DNA of 60,986 nucleotides, the filler included, from Stramenopiles sp. TOSAG23-3 (Eukaryota), in NCBI GenBank assembly GCA_900128585.1. It is 13 parts of 13 records of this genome, joined end to end, with 100 filler letters (N's around TTAATTAATTAA, not from the genome) between each part and the next. Parts side by side here need not be neighbours in the genome. Positions count along the whole stretch, not along the records: positions 4,723 to 9,342 come from LT643762.1; 12 more parts are not named here. One strand, 5' to 3'. The notes below the pieces were generated by a model. The model saw nothing but the letters and a program-made list of their open reading frames with translations, made no database searches and was not told where the DNA came from. A program made the position numbers and the translations under genes. Shown piece after piece: positions 4,109 to 42,561 of the stretch (positions are counted from its first letter, which is position 1; the number at the start of each line of letters is the position of its first letter).

Positions 4109-4622
4109 TTCCTCCTCCAGCCCTTGGTGCCAAAACGGTTCGGATTGTATAACGTGAAATACACCCCGCTGTAAAAAACAAAACCCACCACGCTAATTCA
4201 AACGTGCGTTCACGTTCCCGAGTTAAACAATGAGCATATCGATTAAACTTATATGTATAGTGAAAAGAAAACTTAGATAGGATCTTCTTGTTTTCTTTTC
4301 TTTTGAAAAAAGAAGTTGTGAGTATTTTTTTGTTGTGTTTATTATTTATTTTATTATTTGTTTGAAAAAGAAACGGCGGCCGTCGTGTCGTGTCGTCGTC
4401 AGGTGTCATCACATCATTTATCTGAAAGTCGTCCCTGATGTTCCCTGTTGTATACCTCTTAAGTACGTAATTCAAATATTTAATAAATATAAACAGAGCA
4501 CCTATTAACTTGGTATTAAACAAACAATAAAGACGCCATGCTGTTTATATAGTCAATTTATTAATTAGTATAATAAAATATAAAAATAAAATACAGTTAA
4601 TAAATACAAAGTAGTAGTACGG

Positions 4623-4722
4623 NNNNNNNNNNNNNNNNNNNNNNNNNNNNNNNNNNNNNNNNNNNNTTAATTAATTAANNNNNNNNNNNNNNNNNNNNNN
4701 NNNNNNNNNNNNNNNNNNNNNN
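4623..4722. other. Artificial contig linker. Also at 9343-9442, 14060-14159, 18771-18870, 23476-23575, 28178-28277, 32875-32974, 37565-37664, 42252-42351, 46938-47037, 51621-51720 and 56304-56403
   Basis: Identical 100-bp N44-TTAATTAATTAA-N44 spacer carrying stops in all six frames; the flanking contigs decrease in length. Confidence 0.98.
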
Positions 4723-5141
4723 GAATAATGCTCGAAATGATCATCGTCGTCGGACCGCTTCTTTGTTATTTTTCTTTCTTCCTTCTTCTTCCTTCTTCTT
4801 CCTTCTTCTTCCTTCTTCTTCCTTCTTCTTCCTTTTTTTTAATAAAATACAAAAGCAGTTGCGTTGTGTTACCCTCTTCATTCTTCTTCTTCTTGTGTCC
4901 CTGTTGTTCTTCCTTTTCCTTCTTTTTTTTTTATTATCATCATCAATAATATTATCGATCTTCTTCTTGCACTCTCTTCTTTACGACGGGGGCTTCTTGT
5001 TGAAACTCTACCTGAAAAGAAACGAGTTCATACGGGAGATTGTTCTACACGAGACAGCCGACGAAAGAGCAAGTATTTTTGTTTCGAATTCTGCATCGCA
5101 ACGAAACAGTTAGCCCACTTCTATTTACCACACGGCCCTAA

Positions 5142-7301
5142 ATGACGAAAGTGTTGCCTTCGGATGAAAAGGAAGGCCGGAGTGTGGCAGTGCGTCCTAG
5201 AACGAAGAAGGCTCGGAAGTCGCTCGTCTTGGACAGCCTTGACAAGGCCCAGGTCGCTGCGCTGGATACAAAACAATTAGAAAGCATAAAGAGCGTCGAC
5301 AAAATGCTGACTGCGCCTGAAATCTTGGACGAGAGCGCAAAAGGTCGGCGTCGAAGTATCGACGAAGCGTTTGGCCTTAAACGGCCGGTCAAGCGTCGCA
5401 GCTCATGCGCCCTGTCCATTTTGAGCGTGCTGAATCATAGATTTACGGGTATTTTTCTTTGCTTGACGACCATTTTGGCGCTATTTGCGTACGACCTGAA
5501 CAATGCTGTACTGCCCAAAGAGTGCGATTTCCCCGTGTTAGTAATAATATGCACATGCTTTACCATATTCGCGTTCGAGGTGGTGCTTTCCAGCTATGTG
5601 AACGTGGGCTACGCCGGCAGTTTTTTCTGGGTGCTTGACGTTGTCGGCACCCTAAGCATGATTCCGGACATTCTTCAGATCGTAGACGGTATGGGCACGG
5701 ACAGCGTCGACACAAACCTGGAAGTTACAAAGGCGGGGAAAGCGGGGCGAATAGCAAGGTCTGCCGGGTCTCTCAGAATTACGAGGTACGCCAGAATCTT
5801 TCGAATCGTCCGCCTCGTAAGAGTCGTTCGTTTGCTGAGAATAATCTCGAAGAGTGCAGGTCTGGACGGGGCAGAGCCGAATGACGCAGAGCACCACCGC
5901 TCCTTGGACGAGGCGCCGCGGCAGCGGCCTAGTAAAATTGGGAGGCTCTTGTCGGAAATGATAACCAAACGAATAATTGTTCTGGTCATTCTTCTGATCA
6001 GCGTGCTTCCACAGCTGGAACAAGAGGCCGGGGCCGGCCACGTGCAACCCTCCACGGTCCTGCGAGCTTTGGAGTTCACGTACAACACGTCCAGCTTTCA
6101 CAAGGCCGTGAGCGACATTCTCGTGAACGACCACACGATCGTGTACGCCCGGGTGAGGGGCGTGTTGTTCAAGGACGACGCGCACGCGCTCCAGCGACTG
6201 CGAGAAACGGAGAAATCCGTCACGTGCATCCCTGAAAACTGTTTAGATAATAATTTGCTGAGCGAACAGAACACGGTCATAGTGACGTCGTTGCTCGCTC
6301 AGATTCAGCTGCAGGCGTGGTTGCAAATGGCACTGTGCGTTTTCATAATACTCGTCTTTGGCACGGGAAGCTTTATCATTACCAGAGACGTCCATAAACT
6401 GATCGTTGTACCCATCGAAAGGATGACGAACGTGATCCGAAAACTCGCCAGCACCGTCTGCATACTATCCTTGGACGCCGACGTCGTGGACGACGACGTA
6501 TACGAGACCCAACTCCTTGAGAATGTTGTCCAGAAGATGGCGGGAATGTTCGACGTCGAGCCGGTGCAGACCCACTCCGTGCGGTCGGCCTCAAAAATGA
6601 GCCGCATGTTTCTGGGCACAAAACAGACCGAGATCGTCACGACCACGGGCACGTACATGGTAACCGTCGACGAAAAGTTTGCCCGGGGGACCGCCCACCG
6701 CCCTGGCAATTTCACCTCCGCCAGCAAAATGGAAATTGCGGCGGGTCCGCGCGGCGACAAGCTGTCTGGGTCTTTGCTTCGGACGTACACGTCTGGATCC
6801 CGGCCGGCAAAGAGTGGCGCTGTCACGCGGCAGTCCATCTCGTCCCAGAGCGTCTTGGCTTTGACAACGCAGCACGAAGAGCTTTCGTCCGTGATCAGCA
6901 TCATGGAGGACCCAGGCGCGTCGCAGCATTTAAAGCTCTATATGGCAAAAAGCTTGATGCTGGAGAATTTTCTTTTCTACACTGACGTGCAAAAATTTCG
7001 GGAGAGCACGACCAAGCAAGCCCGCCGTATATACAACATGTACATATCCAACAAAGCAATGAACCAGGTGAACGTAAGCGCGAGCCTCCGGTCGGAAGTG
7101 GACAGGGTCGTGGACAGTTCTGAAATGCCGACGAGCATATTCAATGCGTGCCAGGACGAAATTCTACGGTTGATGGAATTGAACTCGTACTACAAATTTC
7201 TGGCAAGCTCTCACTGCGACGATTACTTGAAGAAGAAGTCCAGTAAACGCCAGGTCTTGGCCGTGGAAGACGGCACCGCCACCCAGAACGGGCAGACGTA
7301 G
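5142..7301 (+). CDS. Six-TM voltage-sensor-like membrane protein with a C-terminal RGS domain
   Basis: Hydrophobic S1-S3, an S4-like RITRYARIFRIVRLVRVVRLLR, two more TMs, a HAMP-like LIVVPIERM linker, and RGS-like LENFLFYTDVQKF...ARRIYNMYI...NQVNVS...IFNACQDEILRLMELNSYYKFL. Confidence 0.75.
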   Translation: MTKVLPSDEKEGRSVAVRPRTKKARKSLVLDSLDKAQVAALDTKQLESIKSVDKMLTAPEILDESAKGRRRSIDEAFGLKRPVKRRSSCALSILSVLNHRFTGIFLCLTTILALFAYDLNNAVLPKECDFPVLVIICTCFTIFAFEVVLSSYVNVGYAGSFFWVLDVVGTLSMIPDILQIVDGMGTDSVDTNLEVTKAGKAGRIARSAGSLRITRYARIFRIVRLVRVVRLLRIISKSAGLDGAEPNDAEHHRSLDEAPRQRPSKIGRLLSEMITKRIIVLVILLISVLPQLEQEAGAGHVQPSTVLRALEFTYNTSSFHKAVSDILVNDHTIVYARVRGVLFKDDAHALQRLRETEKSVTCIPENCLDNNLLSEQNTVIVTSLLAQIQLQAWLQMALCVFIILVFGTGSFIITRDVHKLIVVPIERMTNVIRKLASTVCILSLDADVVDDDVYETQLLENVVQKMAGMFDVEPVQTHSVRSASKMSRMFLGTKQTEIVTTTGTYMVTVDEKFARGTAHRPGNFTSASKMEIAAGPRGDKLSGSLLRTYTSGSRPAKSGAVTRQSISSQSVLALTTQHEELSSVISIMEDPGASQHLKLYMAKSLMLENFLFYTDVQKFRESTTKQARRIYNMYISNKAMNQVNVSASLRSEVDRVVDSSEMPTSIFNACQDEILRLMELNSYYKFLASSHCDDYLKKKSSKRQVLAVEDGTATQNGQT

Positions 7302-7465
7302 CAGTAGTATTGAATTAATTTCAGTTGGCAGGCGCTTGGTTGGGTGCGGGTTTAAACTTTACTTTTTGCTATAAAAATAAAAAAGCTTCTGTGTATGCGC
7401 GTGTTAAACGTAAATGTTACGTGCTGCCTACTTCTGCGGTTCCCCACGCGCCACCCCCTTCTTTG

Positions 7466-8701
7466 TTATGGCACCGCGACGAACCCGCCCGTGTTCATGT
7501 TCCGCCGGCATCGGTCGTGAGAGTATATACAACCGCCCATCGCAACGTAGCACCCAGGGTCGAGCACGCCCACGGCGCCGAGCGCGGTGCCGATGTTAAA
7601 CGACGCGTCGGAGTTCTGAAATTTGTGCGGGCGCATGGCCGCCGTGAGGATGATGGTTTTGTGTGCCAGTTTCGTCTGCCGGGCAAGGTAGGTCGCCGTT
7701 GCTAAAATGGTGTCGGAACCGTGCGTAATTACAATTTTGTTCGTTGCAATTTGGACGGTCAGCTTCAACAGAGTGTCCAGGTCACTCCTGGTGATCTCCG
7801 TGGAATCTTTCCGGCAGCATTCGTAGTGCTCCACCTGAAACCCCAGAGGAACGTGCGCGACGGTCTTCAGCACCTCTTTGGATGCCGCCTCACCGATCTC
7901 GAACGCGTACCCATTCGATATGGCCGGGTAATCTTTGTCAATGGTGCCCCCCATCTGTACAAACGCCACGCGCGGCTTTGGCAGGGGTCTGCTGCTGCGG
8001 GGAGTGTCCACGGTCGATTCAACGCGGGGTGTGTGTGACCCCACGGCGGTCTTTGGCTCGTCCCGTTTGTTCGCATGCAGCGCGAGCTTGGCAAGGCCTT
8101 CGCCAAGTGTTGCGGAAACCAACATTTTCAGGACCGAATCCTCCGATGCCTGGCGCCGGGCGTTCGCCCGCGCCGCGAAGGCGTTAACCTCTTTCGCCGC
8201 CGCGTCCACCGTGAGCTTGTGCCGGTGGTGCAGCCAAAGGGCGCAGCACGTCCCTGTTCGGCCCTGGCCGGCACTGCAGTGGACCACGATACGCTCGTTG
8301 GCCGTTTCGGCGGCCGTCAGCGCGTCTAGCACTCGCTTCCGGGCGTCCTTCGAGTAAATGTCCGCCACGGTCTCCACCACCGCGTCGCCCCCAAAATGTC
8401 GCCGGTACTGCTTCAGCAACGGCTCCTTGTAAAACGTGAGCTCCGACCTCGTCAGCAAGCACAGGACCCTCTTGATTCCTTTCGTTTTCATGTGTTCGAC
8501 CCAGTGCTCAACCGCATTCTCTTCGATCGGCGGTCCCCTTGGCGTCGTCAACAGCCCCTCACGAGGGTGTACATGACCAGGGCGCGCCGCGGCCCACACA
8601 ACATCATCCCGCGACGACACTTTCGAAAGGTTGTACTTTGCGTTCGACGGTGGCGGCTTCCTTTCGACCCCACGGGCAGTACTGTCCCGGGAAAACTCCA
8701 T
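7466..8701 (-). CDS. Fusion of a dual-specificity/tyrosine phosphatase with an L-asparaginase N-terminal-type domain
   Basis: P-loop VVHCSAGQGRTG (CX5R); C-terminal half has MGGTIDKDY, ITHGSDT and TAAMRP...SDASFNIG. Confidence 0.8.
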   Translation of the reverse strand: MEFSRDSTARGVERKPPPSNAKYNLSKVSSRDDVVWAAARPGHVHPREGLLTTPRGPPIEENAVEHWVEHMKTKGIKRVLCLLTRSELTFYKEPLLKQYRRHFGGDAVVETVADIYSKDARKRVLDALTAAETANERIVVHCSAGQGRTGTCCALWLHHRHKLTVDAAAKEVNAFAARANARRQASEDSVLKMLVSATLGEGLAKLALHANKRDEPKTAVGSHTPRVESTVDTPRSSRPLPKPRVAFVQMGGTIDKDYPAISNGYAFEIGEAASKEVLKTVAHVPLGFQVEHYECCRKDSTEITRSDLDTLLKLTVQIATNKIVITHGSDTILATATYLARQTKLAHKTIILTAAMRPHKFQNSDASFNIGTALGAVGVLDPGCYVAMGGCIYSHDRCRRNMNTGGFVAVP

Positions 8702-9444
8702 TATCGAACAACAATTTCAAACGGCTCCAACTTTAAAATACCAACAGTGAAGGATAGACGACTGTCTCCCTTTCTCTCTGTTTCTGCGTGTGTGTGTGGA
8801 CATTTCCCATCATGTCCATTTGTTTTTTGTATGTCGATGATGATGAATTTTTTTATTATACCGAGTTGGTAATACCAAAGGTACTACTAAAAACTAAAAT
8901 ATAAAAAATAATAAGAAGTCGTCCTTCCTTCTCTCTCGCTCCTTCTTCCTCTTCCTCCGGCACCACCACCAACAATCTCATAATAAAATTAATAAATTAT
9001 AATATTACTACATTATCACAGCAAGAAGAAGGGAATCATTTTTGAAATTGAAAGAGTAAAAATACCTATGATGCATGGTAGTAGTACCTGTAAGTTGTCG
9101 GGAGGAGGAGGAGGAGGATAGGAGGAGGCAAACTAACGATCATCATCAAAAAAAAAATGATTTAAAAAAATATCTTACTTTATTGATAATTGAAGAATTG
9201 CTTTTGGATTTTAAAATAAAGAATAAATTAATGAACGAATGGAAACCAAGCGAGGGCATACCTATTCTTCCATGCTTTAACTTATTTTTTACTTCTCGGT
9301 TAACGCCCTTTTTTGTTTGACCCCCCCCCCCCCCCCCCCCCCNNNNNNNNNNNNNNNNNNNNNNNNNNNNNNNNNNNNNNNNNNNNTTAATTAATTAANN
9401 NNNNNNNNNNNNNNNNNNNNNNNNNNNNNNNNNNNNNNNNNNCC

Positions 9445-14059: not shown

Positions 14060-14159
14060 NNNNNNNNNNNNNNNNNNNNNNNNNNNNNNNNNNNNNNNNN
14101 NNNTTAATTAATTAANNNNNNNNNNNNNNNNNNNNNNNNNNNNNNNNNNNNNNNNNNNN

Positions 14160-20935: not shown

Positions 20936-21288
20936 GAATGATGGAGGAATAGATAAAAACTGTGAATTATTTCTTCTGTTTAAAAAGGGGGGCATTTGCA
21001 TTTGCATTAAACTGCATTTGCATTTGCCTTTCTTTTGCTTCTATCTTCTATCCCATTCCGGGAGGATTTATTATAAATTAATAATAATAATTAGAAACAA
21101 TTTGTCTAATGTCGTACCAACGAGTGAAACCATCAATTCCCATTCGATCGACCCATTGAAAAGGTAACATCGTCTCTTTCTTTCCTAACCTTCTCCCCGT
21201 TGCCAACCACAGATCTTTCCCGTGGGTCAACCTCGAAACATTGCCACACCCCGCCTGGTTCGAAGCACGCTGCAGGGTGAGGGAAAAC

Positions 21289-23109
21289 ATGTTCAGTCGG
21301 TCGGGGAAGAGGACCGGGGCGTCCTTCACGGTCCAAGTCGTCTGCGCGGCCGTCCTAGTTTTTTCATCCCGGTCGACCACCAGCCTTAAGCTCCGCGGCA
21401 GGATCCCGCTGTCCCCTCCCGCGAACAACCCGCTCGACCCCCAGTTTTTCAATTCGGACAGCCAGGCAGGGCTTGGGTTGAAGACCCGCCAACAGATGGC
21501 CCCGAGCGGGGAGTTCATCGTCGACACGAACGCGGAGGTCGGGTTGAACAACGCGTTCGACAACCCCATAAAGAACGCAGGATTTTTGAACGACTACCTG
21601 TCGATGACGAAGAAAGAGATCGCATCCGCGAAGAGCGCAAACATCGACCCAAAACTGGGGGCCGCCCTGTACGTAAAGACGGGCATTACGAAGCAGAAGC
21701 CCATGGGGATCAGTGCGGAAGAGCTCGGAAGCTTAGACTCGATGCAGGTGGCGCAGATGACGTCCCAGCACATGAACACGGAAGAGTGGAAAAGCGTCAA
21801 CGAACAGATAGAAGACCGACCGCCCGCGTTCCACGCACCCCCCGGCGACCCGGACTGGGGGTCCCTGAACAAGCCCATCTCGCCCGCGGCGAAGCGTGGG
21901 TTTCCCGACGGCACGGACGCGCACGGCGGGGCCCTCGGGGACGAGGGCGGCATGCGTGCCGGGGGGGGGGGGGGCAGGGGGTCCTCCGGCGGTTCGGCGA
22001 ACTATGACTCGAGCTACACCCCCGTCACCGGCGGGGCCGCGTGCACCCCGCCCCCATCGGGGTTTTTGCCGGGCCGGGGGTCCAATGCCCTGTTCAAACA
22101 GCTCGAAGTGCACGAAGGGAACATCGACCACGTCTACAGGGACAGCCGGGGGCTGCTCACGTTTGGGATTGGGCACTTGATCACTAGCAGCGACCCGGAG
22201 TACGGGAAGCCGGTGGGCCACCCCGTCGACGCAACGCGCATACGAACGGTCTTCAAGTACGACGCAAACAAACACTTGCAAGAAGCGAAAAGCCTGTACT
22301 CGAACTTTGCGCAGTTGCCGGAGGAGGTCCAGCTGATCGTTACGGACATGGCGTTCAACATGGGCTGCGCGGGGGGAAAGGGCCTCGCCGCGTTCAAAAA
22401 CATGAAGCGGGCAGTGTTGGCAAAGAACTACGTCGCGGCCGCAAGCGAGATGCAGAATTCCAGGTGGTGCGGGCAAGTAGGGAGACGGTGTAGTAATTTG
22501 GTCGGGAGAATGCGGGCGTTGGGAAACTGCGGGGACGGCGCGGCCCAGCAATCGTCCAGCAGTAGCAGCAGCAGCAGCAGCAGCAGCCGGAGGGCCTCCT
22601 CGTCCTCCAGCTCCGTCCAGCCGTCGCAGGCGCCCGCAGGAGGTGGGTGCCCAGGTGGCAACATTTGGACCAAGGTTAAAAACCATCGGGAAATCAGGCT
22701 CAACAATTACCACCCGAGCGGGGTCCAAGACCAAGCCTTCCCGAACTTGCAGGTCGGCGAAGCGGCAAAGGGCAACCGGGCGCACCTTTCGAATTACGGG
22801 AACGCCCCAGGCGGGTCCACCTGCTTGCTTCCCAAGCTGGGGAACTTTTTGCTCTCCCTCGCAGACAATTACGGGGGGGTCACCATAAACTCCATTGCGG
22901 GGGCCAGCCACAGCAGGAACTCCAAGCACTACAGGGGAATCGCGATCGACGTCGGGAAATTGAAAGGCAAGACCTTGAACAACTATGCAATGGCAAAGCT
23001 TGTCGTCGACACGTGCCACAAGATGGGAGGTTACGCCTGCTCCAACCCAGGTGGCAGGAAGCTTGCCGGCTGCCCTGGGCATAGTACATGGGTGCATTGC
23101 AGTTTTTAA
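21289..23109 (+). CDS. Predicted secreted bifunctional peptidoglycan hydrolase: GH24 phage-type lysozyme plus M15-like Zn peptidase
   Basis: Hydrophobic N-terminal segment; HEGNIDHVYRDSRGLLTFGIGHL (E-x8-D-x5-T), MAFNMG, AASEMQNSRWCGQVGRR; poly-Ser linker; SHSRNSKHYRGIAIDV...GHSTWVHCSF. Confidence 0.85.
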   Translation: MFSRSGKRTGASFTVQVVCAAVLVFSSRSTTSLKLRGRIPLSPPANNPLDPQFFNSDSQAGLGLKTRQQMAPSGEFIVDTNAEVGLNNAFDNPIKNAGFLNDYLSMTKKEIASAKSANIDPKLGAALYVKTGITKQKPMGISAEELGSLDSMQVAQMTSQHMNTEEWKSVNEQIEDRPPAFHAPPGDPDWGSLNKPISPAAKRGFPDGTDAHGGALGDEGGMRAGGGGGRGSSGGSANYDSSYTPVTGGAACTPPPSGFLPGRGSNALFKQLEVHEGNIDHVYRDSRGLLTFGIGHLITSSDPEYGKPVGHPVDATRIRTVFKYDANKHLQEAKSLYSNFAQLPEEVQLIVTDMAFNMGCAGGKGLAAFKNMKRAVLAKNYVAAASEMQNSRWCGQVGRRCSNLVGRMRALGNCGDGAAQQSSSSSSSSSSSSRRASSSSSSVQPSQAPAGGGCPGGNIWTKVKNHREIRLNNYHPSGVQDQAFPNLQVGEAAKGNRAHLSNYGNAPGGSTCLLPKLGNFLLSLADNYGGVTINSIAGASHSRNSKHYRGIAIDVGKLKGKTLNNYAMAKLVVDTCHKMGGYACSNPGGRKLAGCPGHSTWVHCSF

Positions 23110-38482: not shown

Positions 38483-41400
38483 ATGTTTTCTCCCCAATCA
38501 AATTCTGCTCCTGCATTTACCGGAACCGGAGGTGGAGAGCGCAAGCAGGACCGTGCCGATATGCGTGAGAAGTGGATAATCGGCGTTATTTATGATTATT
38601 TTCGGGGGACGGTGAAAGTCGACAAGTTGAACAAGTATTTGTCCAGCGACGACTGCTTGTCCACCGTTCGCGACTTCATGGACGTCCCCGACGAGCGCTT
38701 CGTCTGCCTAAAGGAGTCAGGGACAGCGGTGCAAATTGCACGGAAGCCCCCGAACAATGTCAAAGGGCGAATTTTGTATTTGTTGAAACCCAAGTCGCAG
38801 GCCTTGCCGGGCCGCGACTTCGAGCGGCTGGTGCTCGTCGGGGACTTGACGGCGGACAGTCTTCTCCACTTGAACGAAGTGGCACAGTACGTGTACATGC
38901 CCCTTCTCTCCAACCCTAACAACCAGCGGGCGTGGAGTGAGCTAGTATCAAAGGACATCATGGACAACCTCCACACGTTTTTAGCAAATATTCAAATTGA
39001 GATTGGGCGCACAAAGGGGCAAACCATTTTGCCGTTGCCCTCCGACGAGGACCTGGACGAAAAGCCGATAACGACGAACAAGGAACGCATCCATGTCTTG
39101 GAGGGGTGCTTGATCACGTGGACAAAGCAGATAAAGAAAGTGCTGCGCCGCGACCCAGAAGATATGCTGAAGCAAAGTGCCAACCCCGGCCCGCTTGCAG
39201 AACTTGATTTTTGGAAAGCGAAAAGCGCCGATTTAGACTCGATATTCGAGCAGCTCCAGGGGTTGAAAGTCAGGAAATTGTTAAAATTTTTAGACGGGGC
39301 AAAGAGCACGTACAACATGCCTTTCGCCAAATTGTGCAAGGAAGTGTTCCAGGCGCGGACAGAGGCCAACGACAACTTGTTGTTCCTTAAGCCGCTGAGG
39401 CCATGGTTCGAGCAAAACCGCGACGTGGACTTTAGCAATTTACCATCTGTATTTCGCCCGATTATGCACTTGATCCTTCTGGTATGGAAGAATTCGCGCT
39501 TCTACAACACGCCGTCGCGCTTGGTTGTCCTGATGCGCGAAATATGCAATTCCCTGATCGCAAAAGCCACGGCCTACATCAACGGGGAGATGGTGTTTGA
39601 AATGATCGAGAATGAAGAGGCAAACCGAGCGGTTTCGATGCTGAAAACCACGTTGCGAGTGTGTGGGAATTTCAAAAGCGCTTACTTTGATTACAAGGCC
39701 AAGGCAAACAGCGAATGCCCCACCAACCCGTGGAGAATTCAAAACAATGCCCTGTTCGTTCGCTTGGACAGTTTTCTGGAACGGTGCCACGATACCCTAG
39801 ACTTGACCCAAACCATTGTTCAGTTCTTCAAGCTCGGAAAACTTGAAGTGGGCGGAACGAAGGGGAAAACGTTGACAACGAGCGTTCAGCAAATCTTCAC
39901 GGACTTCGAAAAAGCAGTTCAGGCCTTTAAAGCGGTGCAGTACGACATAATGGACGTCGACGCAAAGAACTTCGACGACGACTTTTATGAATTTCGTGTC
40001 CGGATTAAAGAGCTTGAGAGAAGGCTAGCGTCCGTGCTCAGCCAAGGCTTTGACGACTGCGTCACAGTAATCGGAAAGTTCAAATTGCTGGACAGCTTCG
40101 AAGGGCTACTGAATCGCCCGATTCTTGCAGACGAGCTGGAGAAAAAACATTCCACCCTGATCGGCTCGTACAATGACGACTTGCGGGAGATGCAGCAGCT
40201 GTTCATTGATGCCAAAGACGCGCCCCCAATCCCGAGCAACATGCCGAAGATATCTGGGGCCTTGCAATGGTGTCGTGGGCTCCTGGAGAGAATAAAGCTT
40301 CCAATGGAAAAGCTGAAGGACCTCGATCGTTCGGTTTTGGACAGGGAGGAAGCGAAAGAGGTCGTGAAAACTTACACGTCCCTGGTCGCCAGCCTTGGAG
40401 AATACGAACATTTGAAAATAGAGCAGTGGGGAGAAGAAATAGAGCAGTCGTCTCAAGCTAAGTTGAAATTGCCGTTGCTCCGGCGAAAAGACGGGTCCCA
40501 CGAGCTGGTGGTCAACTTTGACCCAAAGCTAGTGGAGCTTCTTCGGGAAGTGAAGTATTTTCTGCTGTTGGGGTTGAGTGTACCAAGCAGTGCCCTGAAC
40601 ATTTACAAAAAGGCAGAAATATTTCGGCGACAGACTGGGAACTTGGAGCTCATCGTAAACATGTACAACAACGTGCTGACTAGTTTGCTCCCCGTAGAGG
40701 CCCCACTGATGAAAGGAGATTTAGACAAGATAGACAAAGCATTACAACAAGGAGTCAAGAATATTAATTGGAAAAGCCACGGGATTGATTACTTTCTCAC
40801 GGAATGTATGGGCAGCGCAAAGAACCTGGATGGCATGCTATCTGTCATGAAGACGAGTCTGAAGCGTGTCGACGAGCTGACAGAAGAGTGGCAATCAGAG
40901 CCGCTCTTCCAGCGCCGTCACAAGCCCATTTCAACGGAAGAAAACGAACAAGCGTTCAAGCAGGGCTTGAAAACCAGGTGCAACTTAATCTCGTCGGGTG
41001 GCAAAGAAATCCACAAACTGCTGAAGAACATGAACAAAAAGTTGCGAGTAAGCCCAGGACTTCCCGATTGGAAATCATACCAAGACTTCATTAATAACGT
41101 GATTATAGCGGGCCTGAGCAAGGTTGTCGAAGCTTCTTTGGGCTATTTGAACCAGCAATTGGACGCGGAGGTGATAAAGGCCGAAGACAAGTTACCTATT
41201 CTCGAAATTGAAATGGAGCTTTACGGTAAAGACGTCGTTTTTGTTCCCGCGGTAGGACCTGGACAGGATGGCAACCTAGGCCAGGGGGGTGGCATCCGAA
41301 GCATAGTAGGCGGCTGGATCGAGGGATTCTTGGCCATCACCCGCTTGTTTAAACGCTTCGACTCTGTCGACGGTACGTTTGGAAAAGAGCTTCTCGATAA

Positions 41401-42251
41401 CCCCTACATTCAAATTCTTATTGGTACCATAAACGAGAATCTTTTGAAGAATGAAGCCAGCTGCGAAGATTATAGAAAGGTGTATGTTGAGTTTGAATAT
41501 TTATGGTGCACCGATTTGAGCAAGTATTTCAAGGCGTTTTTAGAGGACGCCTGGTTGGAAAACAGAGACGATGAAGGGAATGTTGTTGGGAAGCGTCGAT
41601 TAAATCTCGACAAGTTTGACGAAGAGATAAAGCGATTCAGAGTTGTCCAGCAAGACATTGGCGCCTTGGCTAGCTCCACCGACATCGATTTTCTCCGCGT
41701 TAATTCGCAACCTATTCAACAAGCGATGTCAACATGGGTAACGAAGTGGGTGTACATGTTCACTTCTTATTTACAGGACCATTTGACGGAAAAGCTTGCG
41801 GGCATAAAAGCTTTCATGGACCGTATATACGATGGTTTAATAGAACCAATACGATCGGACAACCAGGACAGCTTGATGGCCGCCATGACCCACATAAGGG
41901 ATGTGCGGAAAGCCATGACGGACACACAAGAGTCGTTTGGGCCCATGCGCGAGTGCATGGCATTGATGAAACGGCACGGCATCGACATGTCAACCGTGAT
42001 AATAGGAGACGAAGAATTAGGCGATGAAATTAATGCCGTAGAATTGTTGGAAGCGCTTCCCATGCTGTGGGACAAAACGGTTAACTTGGCGTTTAAGAAG
42101 AAGGAAGAGATTCAACCAATTCAGAATTCAATGGCAGAAAGCATCTCGAAAGATGTAGCAAATTTTGCCAACAAAGTCAATCGGTTCCGGATGAATTTCA
42201 GGACTAACGCCCCATTTTCATATACCGGCCCGAGTTCAGAAGCATACAAAA
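38483..42251 (+). CDS. Axonemal (outer-arm-type) dynein heavy chain, N-terminal tail, 3'-truncated
   Basis: DHC_N1 motifs GRTKGQTILPLP, IHVLEGCLITWTKQIK, PGPLAELDFWK, FYNTPSRLVVLMREICN, KLEVGGTKGK, VNFDPKLVELLREVKY. Confidence 0.93.
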
Positions 42252-42561
42252 NNNNNNNNNNNNNNNNNNNNNNNNNNNNNNNNNNNNNNNNNNNNTTAAT
42301 TAATTAANNNNNNNNNNNNNNNNNNNNNNNNNNNNNNNNNNNNNNNNNNNNAAAGTGTCATGATGAGATATGGAAGAAACGGTGGTGAAGATGAGTTAGA
42401 GATAGACCGTGTGTGCGCTTCGTACCATAGGTATTTTTGAATTTGTTATACGAGCTAATTCATCGCAGAGGAAGAGTTAACGTTTAAATAAAAGAAAGAA
42501 GCAGACTTTCAGGCATTTATTCAAGGACAAATTGTTCAATTCCAAAACGACAAAAACAACA

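Follow-up and report, generated by a model that had tools for sequence, protein, structure and literature searches.

Voltage sensors of the S4 type are known to serve purposes other than pore gating in few proteins only. As far as the available text of two reviews goes, these non-pore users comprise the voltage-sensing phosphatases (VSPs), Hv1, TMEM266, the sperm Na+/H+ exchanger and the channel-cyclases, and the term 'RGS' does not occur in that text (PMC10651576, PMC13095418). Membrane voltage and heterotrimeric G-protein systems are so far known to be linked only by way of channels and second messengers. Here we describe an open reading frame (ORF; positions 5142-7301, plus strand) in a stretch of 60,986 nucleotides from Stramenopiles sp. 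TOSAG23-3 (assembly GCA_900128585.1, filler included; hereafter the window), which is predicted to combine within one polypeptide a voltage sensor, a receptor-like module with two transmembrane (TM) helices and a regulator of G-protein signalling (RGS) domain of the type that acts on G-alpha.

The described systems that come closest differ from this protein in output, in membrane part or in both. VSPs, such as Ci-VSP, likewise join a pore-less S1-S4 sensor to a cytoplasmic signalling enzyme, and Ci-VSP is the best structural match in both of our structure searches (see below). However, its PTEN-like phosphatase follows directly on S4, whereas in the present protein S4 is separated from the output, an RGS domain, by two TM helices, an ectodomain and a helical linker. 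By domain content, the nearest described kin are probably two proteins from the 2025 zoospore membrane proteome of Phytophthora parasitica, PPTG_13136 and PPTG_13761, a relationship that we base on shared Pfam architecture and not on alignment. In the part of that paper available to us they are described as Ion_trans-cyclase combinations that belong to a new bimodal family of stramenopiles and alveolates and are located on a flagellum (Sci Rep, PMC12223298). They have an Ion_trans-type sensor and an enzyme in common with the present protein and differ in that the output is a cyclase instead of an RGS domain; the word 'RGS' occurs 0 times in the same portion of text.

The initial annotation of the stretch had likened the protein to the channel/adenylyl-cyclase fusions of ciliates and apicomplexans. 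These proteins from Paramecium, Tetrahymena and Plasmodium (Weber et al. 2004) do unite an S4-type sensor and an enzyme, but, in what we could consult of their description, they carry a K+ channel pore, whereas the present protein has neither a pore nor a Guanylate_cyc match; the likeness was therefore abandoned in favour of the pore-less voltage-sensor-domain (VSD) cyclases of Phytophthora. On the output side, plant AtRGS1 and the Naegleria 7TM-RGS proteins (PMC9283941, available sections) also tether an RGS domain to a multi-pass membrane sensor, although that membrane part is seven-helical and resembles G-protein-coupled receptors, in contrast to the voltage sensor plus two-TM module found here. 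Such an arrangement puts the GTPase-activating protein (GAP) beside membrane-bound G-alpha, and a survey of eukaryotes found that the presence of RGS domains mainly coincides with that of heterotrimeric G-protein subunits and that they are often fused to TM domains (PMC3971589, consulted in part); Ion_trans is absent from its main text as available. In the literature searched we found no description of a sensor-RGS protein, just as the initial annotation knew of no characterisation of the architecture, and the RGS form is apparently both widespread and undescribed; Anantharaman et al. 2011 (PMC3396428) or figures S6/S7 of PMC3971589 could already show it.

Sensor, membrane module and RGS domain

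The ORF comprises 719 codons and a stop without any frame break, and a relative of 717 residues (P0003) aligns to its product from end to end (59% identity, 94% coverage). Two AlphaFold2 models were used: one of the whole protein (58-sequence alignment, mean predicted local distance difference test score (pLDDT) 72.1) and a second one of the membrane part, residues 85-475 (61-sequence alignment, mean pLDDT 82.8, predicted TM-score (pTM) 0.79). The features derived from sequence, relatives and models are the following:

5142..7301, plus strand: whole ORF, 719 amino acids, single exon (open frame; full-length alignment to P0003)
5142..5396, plus strand: predicted N-terminal region on the cytoplasmic side, residues 1-85, for the most part disordered and basic (pLDDT 35-55)
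5397..5861, plus strand: predicted voltage-sensor domain S1-S4, residues 86-240 (Ion_trans match; Ci-VSP structural match; pLDDT 86-96 for residues 81-180)
5568..5639, plus strand: putative charge-transfer centre, F143 and E146 (S2) and D166 (S3) (conservation; analogy with Shaker)
5775..5840, plus strand: S4 charge run of eight Arg (sequence; conservation in relatives)
5862..5933, plus strand: predicted linker from S4 to TM5, cytoplasmic and disordered, residues 241-264 (pLDDT under 50 at 240-260)
5934..6017, plus strand: predicted TM5, residues 265-292, hydrophobic core 274-292 (hydrophobicity; model)
6018..6293, plus strand: predicted ectodomain, residues 293-384, enclosed by TM5 and TM6 (modelled as a small alpha/beta fold that lacks a pore loop)
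6294..6551, plus strand: predicted TM6 (core 396-414), which continues as a long helix in the cytoplasm and is followed by a second helix, 455-470; PF26726 region (model; conservation)
6552..6842, plus strand: linker of low confidence, residues 471-567, in which residues 493-510 are predicted to form a beta hairpin (pLDDT 38-57)
6843..7268, plus strand: predicted RGS domain, residues 568-709, with the Pfam match at residues 584-690, i.e. 6891-7211 (Pfam; profile; fold)

Six hydrophobic helices can be recognised from the hydrophobicity peaks, and the two that follow the sensor (peaks at 274-292 and 396-414) were already seen in the initial annotation. With S1 entering from the cytoplasm, the count of helices would place the RGS domain inside and the domain of residues 293-384 outside. 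Conservation extends beyond the recognised domains, in that both the N-terminal region from about residue 20 on and the sequence of the linker hairpin are conserved in P0003.

The N-terminal four-helix bundle is most probably a voltage-sensor domain of the channel type. Both models place S1 at 100-122, S2 at 126-153, S3 at 161-183 and a long S4 at 194-240. The Arg residues that the initial annotation had noticed at every third position of an S4-like helix are eight in number (R212, R215, R218, R221, R224, R227, R230 and R233), and the same register continues upstream with K197, K200, R203 and R206, which makes the charge ladder unusually long. Within an alignment of 58 relatives, 33 to 57 sequences, depending on the position, retain R or K along the eight-residue ladder (54 in the case of R221). 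The acidic motifs reported earlier for the S2- and S3-like helices, FAFE and WVLD, correspond to residues 143-146 and 163-166, and it is indeed the acidic positions that are kept best: E146 is E in 46 and D in 10 relatives (56 of 58 together) and D166 is present in all 58, next to F143 in 48. We take F143, E146 and D166 to be the equivalents of Shaker F290, E293 and D316, by analogy and not by a residue-by-residue superposition. The joint conservation of D166, F143, E146 and R221 among the 58 relatives implies that the pattern is not due to chance, and conservation of this kind appears to be what a working sensor predicts.

Structure comparison points in the same direction. A wide VIA-align search, independent of Foldseek and covering 48,161 solved chains, ranked the isolated Ci-VSP sensor (4g7v_S; Z 11.9, root mean square deviation (rmsd) 3.4, 129 of 136 residues aligned, 14% identity) first for the whole-protein model, and the first 30 rows were all sensor-bearing channels, transporters or enzymes; with the second model Ci-VSP again led (Z 11.4) and the first 36 rows were all sensor-bearing. 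A search with the single sequence retrieved Kv1.2 (E 0.004, residues 131-237). The Pfam Ion_trans match (PF00520, residues 100-238) spans profile positions 2-121 of 241, that is the S1-S4 half only; several relatives exceed the cut-off of this profile, e.g. P0026 (43.0 bits) and P0038 (40.0 bits).

The protein appears to have no pore. The remark in the initial annotation that a GYG-type filter is not visible was borne out by a motif scan of the whole protein, in which neither G[YFL]G nor T.G[YF]G occurred. In both models the segment of about 90 residues between TM5 and TM6 folds into an alpha/beta domain instead of forming a re-entrant loop, and structural alignments of the second model that reach into the pore helices of channels do so at an rmsd of 6-19 Å; the S5, P-loop filter and S6 of a voltage-gated cation channel are thus missing as far as sequence and models can tell. 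The six-TM channel-like module of the initial annotation consequently holds for S1-S4 and not for TM5 and TM6, which flank the ectodomain and run into the PF26726 linker. One could still suppose that the protein conducts ions, by way either of the sensor (as an Hv1-like or omega current) or of an oligomer formed by TM5/TM6, and that the RGS domain is a tethered regulator. The sensor-only Hv1 does conduct protons (PMC10651576, PMC13095418, available text), and of the 58 relatives 50, 48 and 53, respectively, retain the acidic residues D118, D129 and D176 that line the sensor's outer half. We nevertheless regard conduction as very unlikely, given the lack of a P-loop or filter motif, an Ion_trans match that ends at S4 and the fact that TM5/TM6 can not be superposed on S5/S6 at the deviations just mentioned. 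Moreover, proton channels, with their short S4, are not known to show a continuous ladder of eight Arg.

Instead, TM5 and TM6, the ectodomain and the helical linker seem to form a second, receptor-like module. The ectodomain (293-384) is modelled as two helices and four strands with a pLDDT of about 87-94; it has no Pfam match at E<=10 and no VIA row specific to the region, and we do not claim a new fold for it, the domain not having been folded alone. TM6 is one continuous helix (385-443) in both models and is followed by the second helix. The segment after TM6 holds the two motifs singled out in the initial annotation, LIVVPIERM at 420-428 and YETQLLENVVQKM at 454-466. A proline in TM5, P290, is kept in 57 of the 58 relatives, and P424, in the TM6 helix, in all 58. 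The family PF26726 ('Helical_RasGEFs', Pfam 38.1) is a precomputed annotation on P0002 (99% identical) and P0003, and residues 262-480 match, with an Atlas score of 0.96, a cluster in which 85% of the members carry PF26726. This family is named after RasGEF-bearing proteins, whereas no RasGEF domain was found in the 141 relatives that were scanned with Pfam. The Pro...Glu motif of TM6 recalls the HAMP linker; however, residues 396-480 did not match the HAMP profile (PF00672) at E<=10, nor did the whole protein at E<=1.

These properties also bear on a different view of the protein, namely that of a ligand-gated receptor-RGS in which the ectodomain and the TM6 linker are the real sensor (compare the bacterial two-TM sensors and plant 7TM-RGS1) and S1-S4 would merely anchor the protein, target it (e.g. 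to a flagellum) or modulate it. A confidently folded ectodomain that is conserved in RGS and cyclase forms alike, the invariant proline in a TM6 whose motif recalls HAMP linkers, and an S4-TM5 linker that is disordered here and varies in length, with about 230 residues in the relative P0005, would all suit such a receptor, and protists commonly have TM-anchored RGS proteins (PMC3971589, sections available to us). We consider this view unlikely, since the S4 ladder and its counter-charges, which a mere anchor does not need, have been kept over 58 diverged relatives; in addition, HAMP was not found by Pfam at the threshold given and the ectodomain matched no known ligand-binding family.

The C-terminal domain is, by sequence and model, a canonical RGS domain of the R4-like type that retains the residues contacting G-alpha. 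The initial annotation had placed an RGS-like region at about 6885-7225 and proposed Ion_trans and RGS profiles as a check; of these, RGS (PF00615) was clearly recovered with 58.9 bits (cut-off 23.9), and Ion_trans stayed marginally below its own, in the S1-S4 part only (see below). phmmer retrieved RGS10 (9.8e-11), and a profile of the family, compared with the PDB, matched RGS4 (5.7e-24) far better than SNX13 (3.7e-13), axin (5.5e-11) and GRK (about 1e-4). That the region folds as an RGS domain, as the initial annotation required, is supported by the whole-protein model, in which residues 568-709 are all-helical (pLDDT 88-94) and retrieve RGS18, RGS1 and RGS4 with Foldseek (prob 1.00, TM-score about 0.5 on the target). 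In an alignment with the RGS4 chain of the Gi-alpha complex (1agr_E), E608, N609 and N644 stand at the positions of E87, N88 and N128 of RGS4, the contacts with the switch regions of G-alpha. Among 37 relatives of the RGS type, position 608 is E in 33, position 609 is N in 25 and S in 9, and position 644 is N in 28. Selection thus seems to act both on the charges of the sensor and on the contact residues of the RGS domain.

The family and its outputs

The gene is a member of a large protist family and not a one-off. The search of other protein sets that the initial annotation had called for, performed as a HMMER pass over 1.84 billion representative proteins, returned 1974 proteins at E<=1e-3, of which 673 also passed E<=1e-10. 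Queried by three parts, 44 of the 154 proteins retrieved contain the sensor, the TM5-TM6/helical part and the RGS domain, and a further four (P0049, P0050, P0071 and P0153) have a Pfam RGS match. The Pfam scan covered 141 of the 150 listed matches (nine fragments of at most 196 residues were left out), and among the matches listed RGS was present in 55 of the 141 (one under the cut-off) and Guanylate_cyc in 25. The source names of the relatives read 'hypothetical protein', with as sole exception an NCBI record that was automatically named after RGS16.

The idea that an RGS domain takes the place of a cyclase, put forward in the initial annotation, is thereby strengthened: some relatives join the membrane module seen here to a cyclase, and one module was reused with at least two outputs, RGS and class III cyclase. 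The ectodomain is conserved across both forms according to the consensus. An unrooted tree was built for 113 membrane modules by an IQ-TREE quick search over 361 columns; its rows had been picked by coverage from the 154 retrieved proteins, with P0002 omitted as near-identical. A branch with a support of 96 divides 62 rows from 51. The side of 62 holds no RGS (labels: 20 cyclase, 33 other, 9 truncated), while the side of 51 consists of 39 RGS rows, 11 truncated ones and P0153, which was shown to be RGS. RGS versus cyclase requires only 1 change on the tree. Three of the rows labelled 'other' on the cyclase side turned out to be cyclases; the tree was not rebuilt afterwards.

A few scanned relatives have an additional N-terminal GAF and/or phosphodiesterase (PDE) domain. 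P0055, P0111 and P0146 (also P0070 and P0154) are of the cyclase type with a cyclic-nucleotide phosphodiesterase N-terminal to the sensor, two of them with GAF as well; the presence of both enzymes in one relative implies that synthesis and breakdown of cyclic nucleotides may be united in a single sensor protein. Apart from this, P0123 (1741 residues) has a match to an intein-splicing domain at residues 779-909 (26.3 bits, under the cut-off of 35.8), and P0073 carries CDC73 N- and C-terminal domains ahead of the voltage sensor and probably represents two merged gene models.

The breadth of the family also bears on the supposition that a sensor gene and an RGS gene were fused by assembly or gene calling on a short contig. 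The contig piece measures only about 4.6 kb and lies in a window of joined pieces, and no RNA contig bridges the two halves of the ORF. Marine metatranscriptome runs, which hold small shares of the stretch, provide Logan contigs that cover 5874-6146, 6243-6479, 6583-6634 and 7032-7406, at least 99% alike except for the 6583-6634 piece (95-99%); that none of them extends from the membrane part to the RGS part speaks neither for nor against a single transcript, since uncovered parts carry no meaning at this depth. An artefact is scarcely credible, however, because the architecture recurs elsewhere and the frame is open throughout. Other contigs, the longest of 11.7 kb, encode it in a protein that is 99% identical, contigs as long as 25.6 kb carry it in one that is 59% identical, and it is present in dozens of clusters formed at 50% identity. 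As a separate observation, the contig from metatranscriptome run X1 matches 6583-6634 over 52 bases and then continues with 125 unlike, T-rich letters, which may stem from a chimera, from a variant or from an alternative end.

Voltage-dependent G-protein shut-off and the points against it

We infer, with somewhat less than even confidence, that the protein is a pore-less, voltage-regulated membrane RGS protein, in which case the rate of G-protein shut-off would depend on voltage. A change in membrane potential would move S4, and this movement would be passed on to TM5/TM6 through packing of the sensor within the membrane. The signal would then travel down the TM6 helix, past the invariant proline, to the linker and alter the access of the RGS domain to membrane-bound G-alpha-GTP, resulting in a voltage-dependent shut-off of either polarity. 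The ectodomain may add a second input, in the form of a ligand; that the protein would then act as a coincidence detector of electrical and chemical signals, i.e. as a voltage-gated GAP whose ectodomain also binds an external ligand, is a doubtful extension. Class III cyclases work as dimers, and their kin in this family, and perhaps the present protein as well, may therefore be dimers; a homodimer prediction for residues 85-475 scored 0.21 against a mark of 0.32, a 'no answer' that is evidence neither way.

If voltage-dependent shut-off is correct, the protein would constitute a direct wire from the membrane potential to heterotrimeric G-protein signalling, and voltage-gated GAPs would form a new class of non-channel voltage-sensor enzymes, widespread in marine protists and a sister to the voltage-regulated cyclases. 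The reuse of one sensor module with an RGS domain and with a cyclase would offer a natural system for the study of coupling between S4 and cytoplasmic enzymes, and possibly a source of voltage-controlled tools for G-protein signalling. Since members of the family turn up frequently among sequences from marine protists, it may also bear on the steering of plankton or on their response to stimuli.

Several observations weigh against this interpretation. In the case of the sensor, the Ion_trans match, at 24.5 bits, falls just below the cut-off of 25.0; Z values of 11 to 12 in VIA, i.e. below about 13, are common for helical bundles according to a warning of the tool itself; the family profile retrieved no solved channel from the PDB at E<=1e-3, only chains of the RGS type; and Foldseek with the membrane model gave nothing at E<=1e-3 (best 0.25), its list consisting almost entirely of voltage-gated channels. 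With respect to coupling, the disorder of the S4-TM5 linker, together with its length of about 230 residues in P0005, makes the classical route through an S4-S5 linker unlikely, so that the coupling path is guesswork, and the folded ectodomain means that a ligand rather than voltage could be the main input. As for the output, RGS4 D163 and R167 are replaced here by N681 and K685, at positions that vary across the family. Finally, the nearest Atlas cluster has Chlorophyta as its commonest phylum, a weak lead in that the phylum is known for 4 members only, and sequenced green algae were described in 2013 as lacking G-protein elements and RGS (PMC3718340, available part of the review).

The last of these observations suggest a further explanation, in which voltage is sensed but signalled along another route, the RGS domain serving as a scaffold or acting on a partner other than heterotrimeric G-alpha. 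Besides the loss of the D163 and R167 equivalents and the algal lead, it can be adduced that some RGS domains have lost their GAP activity (PMC3971589, sections consulted). We judge this explanation distinctly improbable in view of E608, N609 and N644, which match the contacts of RGS4 and are kept in most of the 37 relatives, and of a family profile that lies far nearer to R4 RGS domains than to the RGS-like domains of axin, SNX and GRK. In the accessible part of the Bathycoccus genome paper we found no mention of dynein, G protein or RGS.

Contig piece and remaining window

The sequencing runs that contain the stretch are marine. The window is a chain of contig pieces, and the genuine neighbourhood of the gene is confined to positions 4723-9342. 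Twelve pairs of runs of 44 N, spaced by about 4.7 kb, occur in the window (4623-4722, 9343-9442, 14060-14159 and nine more), and in the first of these, read as part of the region 4400-5200, the two N runs are separated by the 12 bases ttaattaattaa. The pieces between the spacer pairs decrease slowly in size (4622, 4620, 4617 bases and so on), and the whole looks like a set of length-sorted contigs joined by a spacer with stops in all frames, from which it follows that adjacency across spacers is not real. No second member of the family is present in the window besides ORF 5142-7301.

The piece 4723-9342 contains, apart from the voltage-sensor-RGS gene, a convergent ORF (7466-8701, minus strand; 411 residues) with an unusual pairing of a dual-specificity/tyrosine-phosphatase-like domain (about residues 59-173) and an asparaginase N-terminal domain (244-401). 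A long CTT/pyrimidine microsatellite (4760-4835) lies about 300 bases 5' of the start codon on the same piece. Elsewhere in the window, an ORF at 38483-42307 (plus strand) encodes N-terminal region 1 alone of a dynein heavy chain (Pfam, 608.7 bits); it terminates at a spacer and was therefore cut by the end of the contig instead of being truly short. Another ORF, at 21241-23109 (plus strand; 622 residues), has a phage-lysozyme domain (28.2 bits) on a piece that is eukaryote-like.

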